In this document: positions 36,473 through 37,930 of the stretch, piece by piece | How the letters are laid out: each line of letters starts with the position of its first letter | Position numbering within the stretch: the first letter of the stretch is position 1 | Source: Eledone cirrhosa | Lineage: Eukaryota | Assembly: GCA_964016885.1 (NCBI GenBank) | Contig: OZ024743.1 | Span: 280,798,001-280,862,000, forward strand | DNA length: 64,000 nucleotides | Reading direction: 5' to 3' | Translations under genes and position numbers: made by a program | Notes under the pieces: model-generated | Told to the model about the DNA's origin: nothing | Databases searched by the model: none | The model's input: only the letters and a program-made list of their open reading frames with translations

Positions 36473-37114
36473 AATATATATATATATATATATATATATA
36501 TATATATATATATATATATATATATATATACATATATATATATATACATATACATACTGTATATATGTTAATATGTATATATATATATATATATATATAT
36601 ATGTATATATATATATATATATATATATATATATATATATATATATATATATATATATATATATATATATGTATATATATACATATATATGTTAATATGT
36701 ATATATATATATTTATATACAAATAAAATACAGAGTTACTAACTCATATTGATACCCTGCAATTAACAAGCACAAAGTATAAATACTGAGCACTATATAA
36801 TTTTAGACACACACACATATATATATATATATATATATATATATATATATATATATTATATATATATATATATATATATATATATATATATATATATATA
36901 TATTATATATATATATATTATATATATATATATATATATATATATATATATATATATATATATATATATATATATATATATATATATATGTGTGGTTATA
37001 AGAGGCTTAGCTCTGTTTCTCGACCGTTATATCGCGTGACTATCTCCCCCTCCGCCTTTTGGGATTCTTTCTCACGTCGTGTAGACGCGTTCTTGAGACT
37101 AGTAAAATGAGGTA

Positions 37115-37202
37115 TCCTCTTGATAAGTCGGCAGACCTCGCAAGGACTCTATATCTTTGATATATTGTTTTTGTTTATGCCACGAAACTACGTAGTCGAG
37201 GA
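37115..37202 (+). ncRNA. Type I hammerhead with U3-A8 core (copy 1)
   Basis: TCCTC-TTGATAA-GTCGGCA...TGCCAC-GAAA-CTACGTAG-TC-GAGGA. Confidence 0.8.
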
Positions 37203-37705
37203 ATTTAGGAACAGTTTAGGTATGATACATTTTATTACTAATTATATCTAAATGTTTCTTCTCTCTTCATAATGTATTTTTAACTCTGATACTGGTTCAG
37301 TCTAGTTCAAACTGAATTGGTCTGTCCCAGTCATTCATTGAGCAACATCGGTGAAGTTGGCACCCTTAACTCACAGTTGGGTGCGGATGCATTCATGTAT
37401 ATATGTGTGTGTCCGCATGTATCTGTGTGTTTCTAAATATATTAATAACTCCCTCTGGTCGAGCAATCTTTGAAGTGTGGGGACAACTGGAAAGCTTCCA
37501 TTACTCATACTTCTCGCCTTCTTCACTACCTCTTCTGCGGCCTCGATATGAATACCCCCTCCGCCTCCGTGGTATTTTCTTCGTGGTTATAAGAGGCTTA
37601 GCTCTGTTTCTCGACCGTTATATCGCGTGACTATCTCCCCCTCCGCCTTTTGGGATTCTTTCTCACGTCGTGTAGACGCGTTCTTGAGACTAGTAAAATG
37701 AGGTA

Positions 37706-37793
37706 TCCTCTTGATAAGTCGGCAGACCTCGCAAGGACTCTATATCTTTGATATATTGTTTTTGTTTATGCCACGAAACTACGTAGTCGAGGA
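37706..37793 (+). ncRNA. Type I hammerhead with U3-A8 core (copy 2)
   Basis: Same sequence as 37115-37202. Confidence 0.8.
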
Positions 37794-37930
37794 ATTTAGG
37801 AACAGTTTAGGTATGATACATTTTATTACTAATTATATCTAAATGTTTCTTCTCTCTTCATAATGTATATATATATATATATATATACGATATTAAACAA
37901 ATGGAAACTATATTTATAAAACCATATTTA

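Follow-up and report, generated by a model that had tools for sequence, protein, structure and literature searches.

Analysis of a 64-kb stretch of the Eledone cirrhosa genome (64,000 nucleotides, referred to here as the window) revealed that positions 36992 to 37868 are one insertion of a young non-LTR retrozyme family. The insertion is a 1.48-mer of a 591-nt unit, truncated at the 5' end, and its repeats are not LTRs. Taken as a whole, the data make it probable that a Penelope-like enzyme, probably a member of the Hydra clade, inserts copies of this non-coding hammerhead retrozyme into (TA)n, using an RNA template that is likely circular.

The initial annotation had described two identical 286-bp direct repeats around a 305-bp spacer within (TA)n, and these coordinates proved exact. 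Segment 36992-37277 equals 37583-37868 at every one of the 286 bp, the spacer occupies 37278-37582, and the period is 591. The left (TA)n tract covers 36817-36988 and the right tract begins at 37866; a target-site duplication is unreadable within these flanks. Six-frame translation of the 36992-37868 region yielded no long ORF and no protein-coding capacity, in agreement with the earlier description of the unit as non-coding. Unit positions were numbered q1-591 = 37278-37868, with site A at q591, site B at q165-167, and the predicted ribozyme cut at q511. The locus comprises the following features:

36817..36988, no strand: (TA)n target, left flank, read from the sequence
36992..37277, plus strand: truncated second copying round, unit positions 306-591, equal to 37583-37868 and formerly called the left repeat
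37278..37868, plus strand: one complete 591-nt unit ending at site A; this length is the array period at other loci
37434..37444, plus strand: site B, a second 3' terminus in other copies (997 + 628 exact ends), internal here; it delimits the Penelope 'tail'
37860..37868, plus strand: site A, the 3' terminus of the insertion and putative start of reverse transcription (2,516 exact genomic A ends followed by (AT)n)
37869..37887, no strand: (TA)n target, right flank, read from the sequence

The internal copy of site A in this locus ends at 37277, and site B falls 165-167 nt past site A, which gives a tail of 165 nt.

All 40 loci that were scored (out of 786 candidates), on many contigs, matched the 877 nt of the insertion at 98-100% identity. 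A 22-nt piece of the hammerhead had 7,502 exact matches in the genome, compared with 0 for its reversed control; the search for further copies, proposed earlier as a check, thus returned thousands. Genome-wide, 2,516 exact A ends were followed by (AT)n, so the family comprises at least 2,516 insertions. Exact B ends numbered at least 1,625 (997 + 628, in two registers), and internal unit junctions numbered 4,781. The unit was mapped on 79 other loci, a sample that favoured intact copies: 39 were best matches, and 40 were selected for an exact match spanning the cut (taken from the first 41 consecutive core matches on contig C1). The copies form head-to-tail arrays that reach about 12 units. 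They are dispersed over both strands and many contigs and have differing flanks. Array 5' ends were scattered over the whole unit (119 arms). The 3' ends were fixed at A or B, each merging into (AT)n, and neither site coincides with the ribozyme cut. The median arm length in the consecutive sample was about 525 nt.

Because the 5' ends scatter over the whole unit, the 286-bp repeat is a truncated second round and not an LTR; its length is the point at which the second copying round of this copy stopped, not a property of the element. The idea of a unit bounded by 286-bp terminal repeats is therefore abandoned, given that other copies are arrays with variable 5' ends, while the retrozyme-type 591-nt unit was borne out by the recurrence of its period in arrays at other loci. 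True LTRs are absent, as judged from variable 5' ends and a locus-specific repeat length, and the type I hammerhead and the lack of a fixed LTR set the locus apart from plant-type LTR retrozymes, whose fixed LTRs come with type III hammerheads and a target duplication of 4 bp. The copies show the tandem repeat with one type I hammerhead per unit of a non-LTR retrozyme and also the 5' truncation, partial tandem and inverted structure, and optional tail at one end of a non-autonomous Penelope-like element. Recent insertion had been deduced from the identity of the repeats. Repeat identity is no proof of youth, because both repeats are expected to be identical if copied in one pass; the youth itself is upheld by the family-wide identity.

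At this one locus the arrangement resembles repeat-spacer-repeat, as would be expected of a mini-element with defined 286-bp terminal repeats, a satellite arising by DNA recombination, or an assembly duplication. Variable 5' ends, 3' ends fixed at two sites, and dispersed copies with different flanks argue against all of these, and independent contigs show the same ends; we assign this group of explanations a negligible probability. An assembly duplication in particular was rejected, since the same 877 nt recur at 40 of 40 scored loci on many contigs at 98-100% identity and the contigs of an independent run agree, with (AT)n directly after 37277 and after 37442. The artefact envisaged by the initial annotation is thereby excluded.

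When both strands of the window were scanned with a strict type I hammerhead descriptor, just two motifs were detected, with predicted cuts after C37197 and C37788, which confirms the complete hammerhead reported earlier in each repeat. In hammerhead 1, stem I is formed by 37115-37119/37198-37202, the core UUGAUAA (U3-A8 replacing C3-G8) is followed by GAAA at 37184, and the GUC triplet ends at C37197. The motifs have three stems round a conserved core, the 3-8 pair, G10.1-C11.1, and an NUH triplet. Rfam returned zero hammerhead matches at the gathering threshold and none at E<=5. The RNA features of the unit are as follows:

37108..37202, plus strand: hammerhead 1, type I, with U3-A8 core, long branched stem II and palindromic stem III; cut predicted after C37197
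37108..37140, plus strand: candidate 6-bp pseudoknot between the leader (37108-37113) and the stem II bulge (37135-37140); likewise predicted in hammerhead 2
37198..37788, plus strand: predicted cut-to-cut 591-nt RNA monomer, deduced from the two cut sites
37283..37343, plus strand: stem immediately 3' of site A, with a 5' strand similar to the equivalent position in Hydra-clade family H3
37368..37431, plus strand: long hairpin ending about 11 nt ahead of site B (z = -6.9), kept down to the sisters of about 75% identity
37449..37469, plus strand: motif immediately 3' of site B; 17 of 21 alignment columns equal Hydra-clade family H1
37699..37793, plus strand: hammerhead 2, identical to hammerhead 1; cut predicted after C37788

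The cut-to-cut RNA has a predicted fold of -178 kcal/mol (z = -5.4 versus shuffles). U3-A8 cores occur in Schistosoma Penelope elements (PMC4209133), and such hammerheads were reported to be active in vitro (PMC3088659). The hammerhead studied here shares this core with those described in the two papers and differs from them in combining it with a branched stem II of about 60 nt, a palindromic stem III, and a candidate 5'-leader pseudoknot. Penelope minimal hammerheads, in contrast to the long branched form found here, have a simple stem II of 7-8 bp. The 5' leader is predicted to pair with the stem II bulge, and the resulting pseudoknot would resemble those that are known to accelerate other hammerheads (PMC3088659). 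About 40% of surveyed hammerheads have a pseudoknot between stems I and II (PMC4209133; PMC3088659). In 24 natural copies from four families, 98.6% of cells retained the pseudoknot pairing, with changes mostly one-sided. At 37198-37268, the 3' strand of stem I can pair instead with bases before site A to form a long hairpin (z = -4.3), and this modelled alternative could switch the ribozyme off in mature RNA; the pairing is absent from the family consensus fold. Ahead of the hammerhead, each unit has two occurrences of a GC-box-like 10-mer (37048-37057, 37557-37566, 37639-37648), which sister families keep. Judged from its sequence, it is a possible internal promoter; the upstream copy is missing from the first round of this locus.

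Older sister families of similar length (about 565-595 nt) carry the same U3-A8 hammerhead. They were found at three levels of identity to the unit:

L078 and L084: sister family at roughly 87% identity
L230-L254: sister family at roughly 75% identity, in which tandem and inverted copies were also seen
L205-L229: sister family at roughly 60% identity

Across 24 natural copies, 97.4% of cells pair in a 26-pair structure and 8 pairs show two-sided changes; the structure was derived from the same sequences, and the few clades mean few independent events behind these changes. The hammerhead core is kept down to 60% unit identity, with compensatory stem changes. Since the core is conserved across families, the sequences imply that the copies that spread are those with an intact hammerhead. 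The self-complementary stem III noted earlier is still palindromic, or nearly so, in the 60% family, and its persistence fits a dimer fold.

Mapping of the insertion ends revealed a rule. All 41 back-to-back insertions with both ends at fixed sites (among 79 loci) paired one A with one B end, and no A/A and no B/B insertion was found. The A end at L031, which carries a small deletion, was assigned to A by hand. The remaining loci comprised 14 simple A and 17 simple B insertions, 2 inverted insertions with one end elsewhere, 2 simple insertions with another end, and 3 complex cases. The haplotypes of the two arms were compared at 16 common markers in 42 inverted loci, with six loci omitted as complex or divergent; 345 comparisons were concordant and 1 was discordant. 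Shuffled arm pairs disagreed in 21.5% of comparisons, and the lowest value among 2,000 shuffles was 13%. In addition, 14 rare variants, in 11 loci, were present in every unit of both arms. A single dominant source locus per cell could also give this concordance. The central junctions, where the two arms join, showed short microhomology, with a mean overlap of 3.1 nt (37 junctions) versus 0.67 for random pairs, and 6 more contained extra bases. Three loci showed further patterns: tandem duplication of the entire inverted insertion (L082), an inverted duplication that includes the flank (L141), and variants with a two-unit period (L057). These patterns point to post-insertion rearrangement or assembly effects.

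The RNA template was assessed from variation within arrays. For markers present in at least five loci, all units carried the same state in 99 locus-marker cells and were mixed in 5 (seven loci were omitted from this count). Only 3 of 119 arms had 5' ends within 15 nt of the cut, where about 3 were expected. The cut was spanned by 232 units with no change at the 8 flanking positions (q508-515), in a sample that favoured intact junctions. Array homogeneity, the absence of excess stops at the cut, and scar-free crossing favour a one-unit circle as template, as far as genomic copies can indicate it. That circles could template Penelope copies of more than unit length was already suggested in print (PMC4209133).

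Two linear templates were weighed against the circle. In the first, uncut multi-unit transcripts are copied, arrays regrow or homogenise in DNA, and the hammerhead merely trims RNA ends. At L044, both arms carry two unit-specific variants in matching register, a pattern compatible with a multi-unit template or with subsequent gene conversion, and rare variants are common to adjacent units in L040, L046, L057, L065, and L095. Ten rare variants are common to some but not all units; therefore, arrays were also reshaped after insertion. In vitro, a lizard Penelope enzyme used unprocessed RNA as its main substrate and hammerhead cleavage was dispensable (PMC11167929); only 1 of 9 Xenopus retrozyme dimers was cleaved in vitro, and unequal crossover was proposed for retrozyme arrays (both from the 2026 preprint, bioRxiv 10.64898/2026.07.22.740005). 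Against this template, markers are all-or-none in 99 versus 5 cells, and rare variants occupy up to 14 of 14 segments; the linear multi-unit transcript would therefore need a one-unit bottleneck in nearly every round. Moreover, most arms are short (the consecutive sample has a median of about 525 nt), so linear-templated arrays would shrink without regrowth. In a register test of unit-specific variants, 3 were shared and 52 were not; each base of a multi-base deletion was counted, and many cases had two segments. We consider the uncut multi-unit template unlikely. A dimer-circle reading of the alternating units in L057 was rejected, since the alternating variants change along the array.

In the second, the cut linear monomer is copied, and arrays are built as the enzyme jumps from the 5' end of a monomer to the 3' end of the same or another monomer. 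Such jumping would keep the one-unit bottleneck and dispense with host ligation, and three arms indeed end no more than 15 nt from the cut. This number (3/119) is no excess, however, and none of the 232 crossings has a changed junction base; intermolecular jumps should also mix haplotypes, and mixing is rare. The cut linear monomer as template is rated as improbable, and a circle remains the preferred template. Closed loops in assembly graphs were also inspected. Runs X1 and X5 (type not stated) each contained one contig of exactly one unit + 30 nt that closed on itself. Neither was accepted as evidence of a circle: X1 also contained an abundant Penelope ORF at similar depth, as would be seen with trace host DNA, and the blank for X5 can be false.

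The favoured circular route would proceed in five steps. A locus with two hammerheads, such as 36992-37868, would be transcribed. Both hammerheads would cut, freeing a 591-nt monomer that a host ligase would close. The enzyme, probably a dimer, would then bind the stems 3' of A and B on one RNA and cut both strands of a (TA)n tract. Each DNA 3' end would base-pair with a short AU-rich stretch at A or B, priming reverse transcription that would roll round the circle until falling off. If both cDNAs survived, they would be joined by short microhomology into a back-to-back insertion; a single surviving cDNA would give a simple truncated array. The insertion at 36992-37868 would represent the simple case, A-primed and 877 nt long. 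The most specific form of this proposal is that one Hydra-clade dimer grips a single covalently closed 591-nt RNA at two stems and allots start A to one end of a (TA)n double-strand cut and start B to the other, that both cDNAs roll round the circle, and that the circle is made by a pseudoknot-stabilised U3-A8 hammerhead. We offer this version tentatively, at somewhat less than even chances. If true, it explains the one-end Penelope tail, the head-to-head inversion, and the pseudo-LTR as one mechanism.

The initial annotation had proposed mobilisation in trans by (TA)n-targeting Penelope enzymes like those nearby. The type of mobilisation was supported, but the nearby copy was dismissed as the source. 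The copy in question is the following:

33966..36471, plus strand: truncated Hydra-clade Penelope-like element of family H1, ending in the same (TA)n region

This element is an insertion separate from the 591-nt unit. It is truncated and has 89% identity to an intact relative, which rules it out as the source of the enzyme. Further Hydra-like Penelope fragments lie at 29313-30135 (minus strand) and 26406-26879 (plus strand), and many short pieces of the H1 3' UTR are scattered across the window. The search for an autonomous element sharing the 286-bp repeat, also raised earlier, yielded none among eight sampled Penelope families; neither extended homology to the unit nor an ORF-bearing parent was found in 111 loci from these eight families. 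Every Penelope ORF upstream of the family hammerhead was cut off from it by a (TA)n tract (129 unit-bearing loci), and the unit does not contain the RT + GIY-YIG ORF of an autonomous Penelope-like element. A pattern for a short-stem-II version of this hammerhead, a possible parent form, gave 0 matches. Two more Hydra-like families, seen as single copies in L131 and L048, remain parent candidates.

Family H1 encodes a protein of 713 aa and H3 one of 719 aa, both with the motifs RWK/RWR, DKT, CxCX5C, CxxC, and CxH. The assignment to the Hydra clade rests on these motifs, which are given for the clade in PMC8557442; the supplement of that paper lists Hydra elements for an octopus. Pfam gave nothing significant on the Penelope fragments of the window or on the 713-aa ORF. 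The A/B rule was also found in these families, in 9 of 9 clear pairs of H3 (L281 was excluded from the clear pairs) and in 7 of 8 pairs of H1, where the exception, L141, has a duplicated flank. In H1, H2, H3, and each of the four unit families, a stem opening with RCTC and closing with GAG begins 2-12 nt past site A. Past this site, the unit sequence most resembled H3 (14-15 of 16 positions; p = 0.015 and 0.003), and past site B it most resembled H1 (17 of 21; p = 0.0015); these likenesses were spotted by eye before testing, and the p values (0.001-0.018 for the motifs) are uncorrected among 20 comparisons. The common motifs span 16-21 nt, and the matches point to different families. Copy age picks no partner either, as long-ORF copies of H1, H2, and H3 average 97.5-98.2% DNA identity. 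These sequence likenesses make an enzyme of the Hydra clade the likely mobiliser.

The young Hydra-clade family H3 (L263-L285) has a type I hammerhead of its own, located about 34 nt ahead of site A. The core is canonical but the stem II base has an A-G mismatch, and strict descriptors miss this hammerhead. Two other very young Penelope families (L157-L168 and L193-L204) have open frames of up to about 1,280 and 784 aa; the former has a canonical hammerhead, and a scan found none near the ORF of the latter. Other tandem units of about 311 nt were seen in L134 (about 7900-8240, two copies 311 nt apart) and in the L267 flank, and the L134 unit carries a canonical minimal hammerhead.

Non-LTR retrozymes as a kind are already published. 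Like those of metazoans (PMC7229834; 2026 preprint), the family consists of non-coding tandem units with one type I hammerhead each, a GC content under 50%, a strongly folded unit, thousands of copies, and co-resident Penelope-like elements. Penelope enzymes were proposed as retrozyme mobilisers (PMC7229834; Li, Clavereau and Pollet 2026, bioRxiv 10.64898/2026.07.22.740005), as was circle-templated tandem cDNA (Cervera and de la Pena 2020, PMC7229834). The unit, at 591 nt, is longer than the 170-400 nt reported for invertebrate retrozymes, and the 2026 survey spans 51-972 bp. The U3-A8 core with its long stem II and candidate leader pseudoknot also sets the unit apart, and the accessible text of PMC7229834 and the 2026 preprint contains no description of fixed A/B ends or of inverted insertions with two arms. 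Circles were demonstrated for coral, mussel, and axolotl retrozymes, whereas the circle of the present unit is putative.

Like the unit, Hydra-clade EN+ Penelope-like elements (Craig et al. 2021, PMC8557442) target (TA)n, are 5' truncated, form partial tandems, and carry an inverted 5' copy, a hammerhead near the 3' end, and a tail that is often confined to one end. Partial tandems, the inverted 5' copy, and the one-end tail are regarded as a Penelope-like footprint (PMC8557442; PMC3846280), and non-autonomous multi-copy head-to-tail elements of Chlamys, e.g., MRC1, were noted in PMC8557442. Unlike Hydra-clade elements, the unit has no ORF and has just short motifs in common with the autonomous families examined; its tail is 165 nt, compared with 30-40 bp in PMC8557442 and 81/88 nt in H3/H1 of this genome. 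For PAc, the Poseidon element of Anolis, two internal reverse-transcription starts delimit the tail (Frangieh et al. 2024, PMC11167929). Its enzyme cuts and extends both target strands, is predicted to be a dimer, and needs RNA downstream of its starts (PMC11167929). The putative pair of internal starts, the involvement of both target strands, and the AT-rich targets are common to PAc and the unit. PAc, however, starts at a site not homologous to the target, while both sites here end in AU-rich bases merging with (AT)n; the available text of the PAc study does not allot one start to each end of the DNA, an arrangement to which the A/B pairing would correspond. In the literature searched, as far as the texts were accessible, no paper was found on fixed paired retrozyme starts or on this hammerhead form; preprint supplements may list similar units. 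The main text of a recent octopus repeat annotation (PMC13282606), in the version seen, does not contain the words hammerhead, retrozyme, or ribozyme.

The family is useful as a test system. How tandem, inverted, and tailed Penelope-like insertions arise is recognised as an unanswered question (PMC8557442), and for animal retrozymes a mobilising enzyme was proposed but not shown (PMC7229834; 2026 preprint). Being short, ORF-free, and very young, and having thousands of insertions and numerous haplotype markers, the family offers statistical power beyond that of 3-kb elements. It supplies template, target, and candidate enzymes for a reconstituted assay and adds a hammerhead form missed by Rfam.

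The surroundings of the insertion contain other repeats. The (TA)n region around it also encloses two further short unique segments, 37889-38080 and 36712-36816; the former is similar to flanks of L049 and L208 and is therefore probably another small mobile repeat. Broken ORFs of non-LTR retrotransposons are located at 56813-61421 and, on the minus strand, at 33523-34055 (RVT_1; zf-RVT under the curated cut-off).
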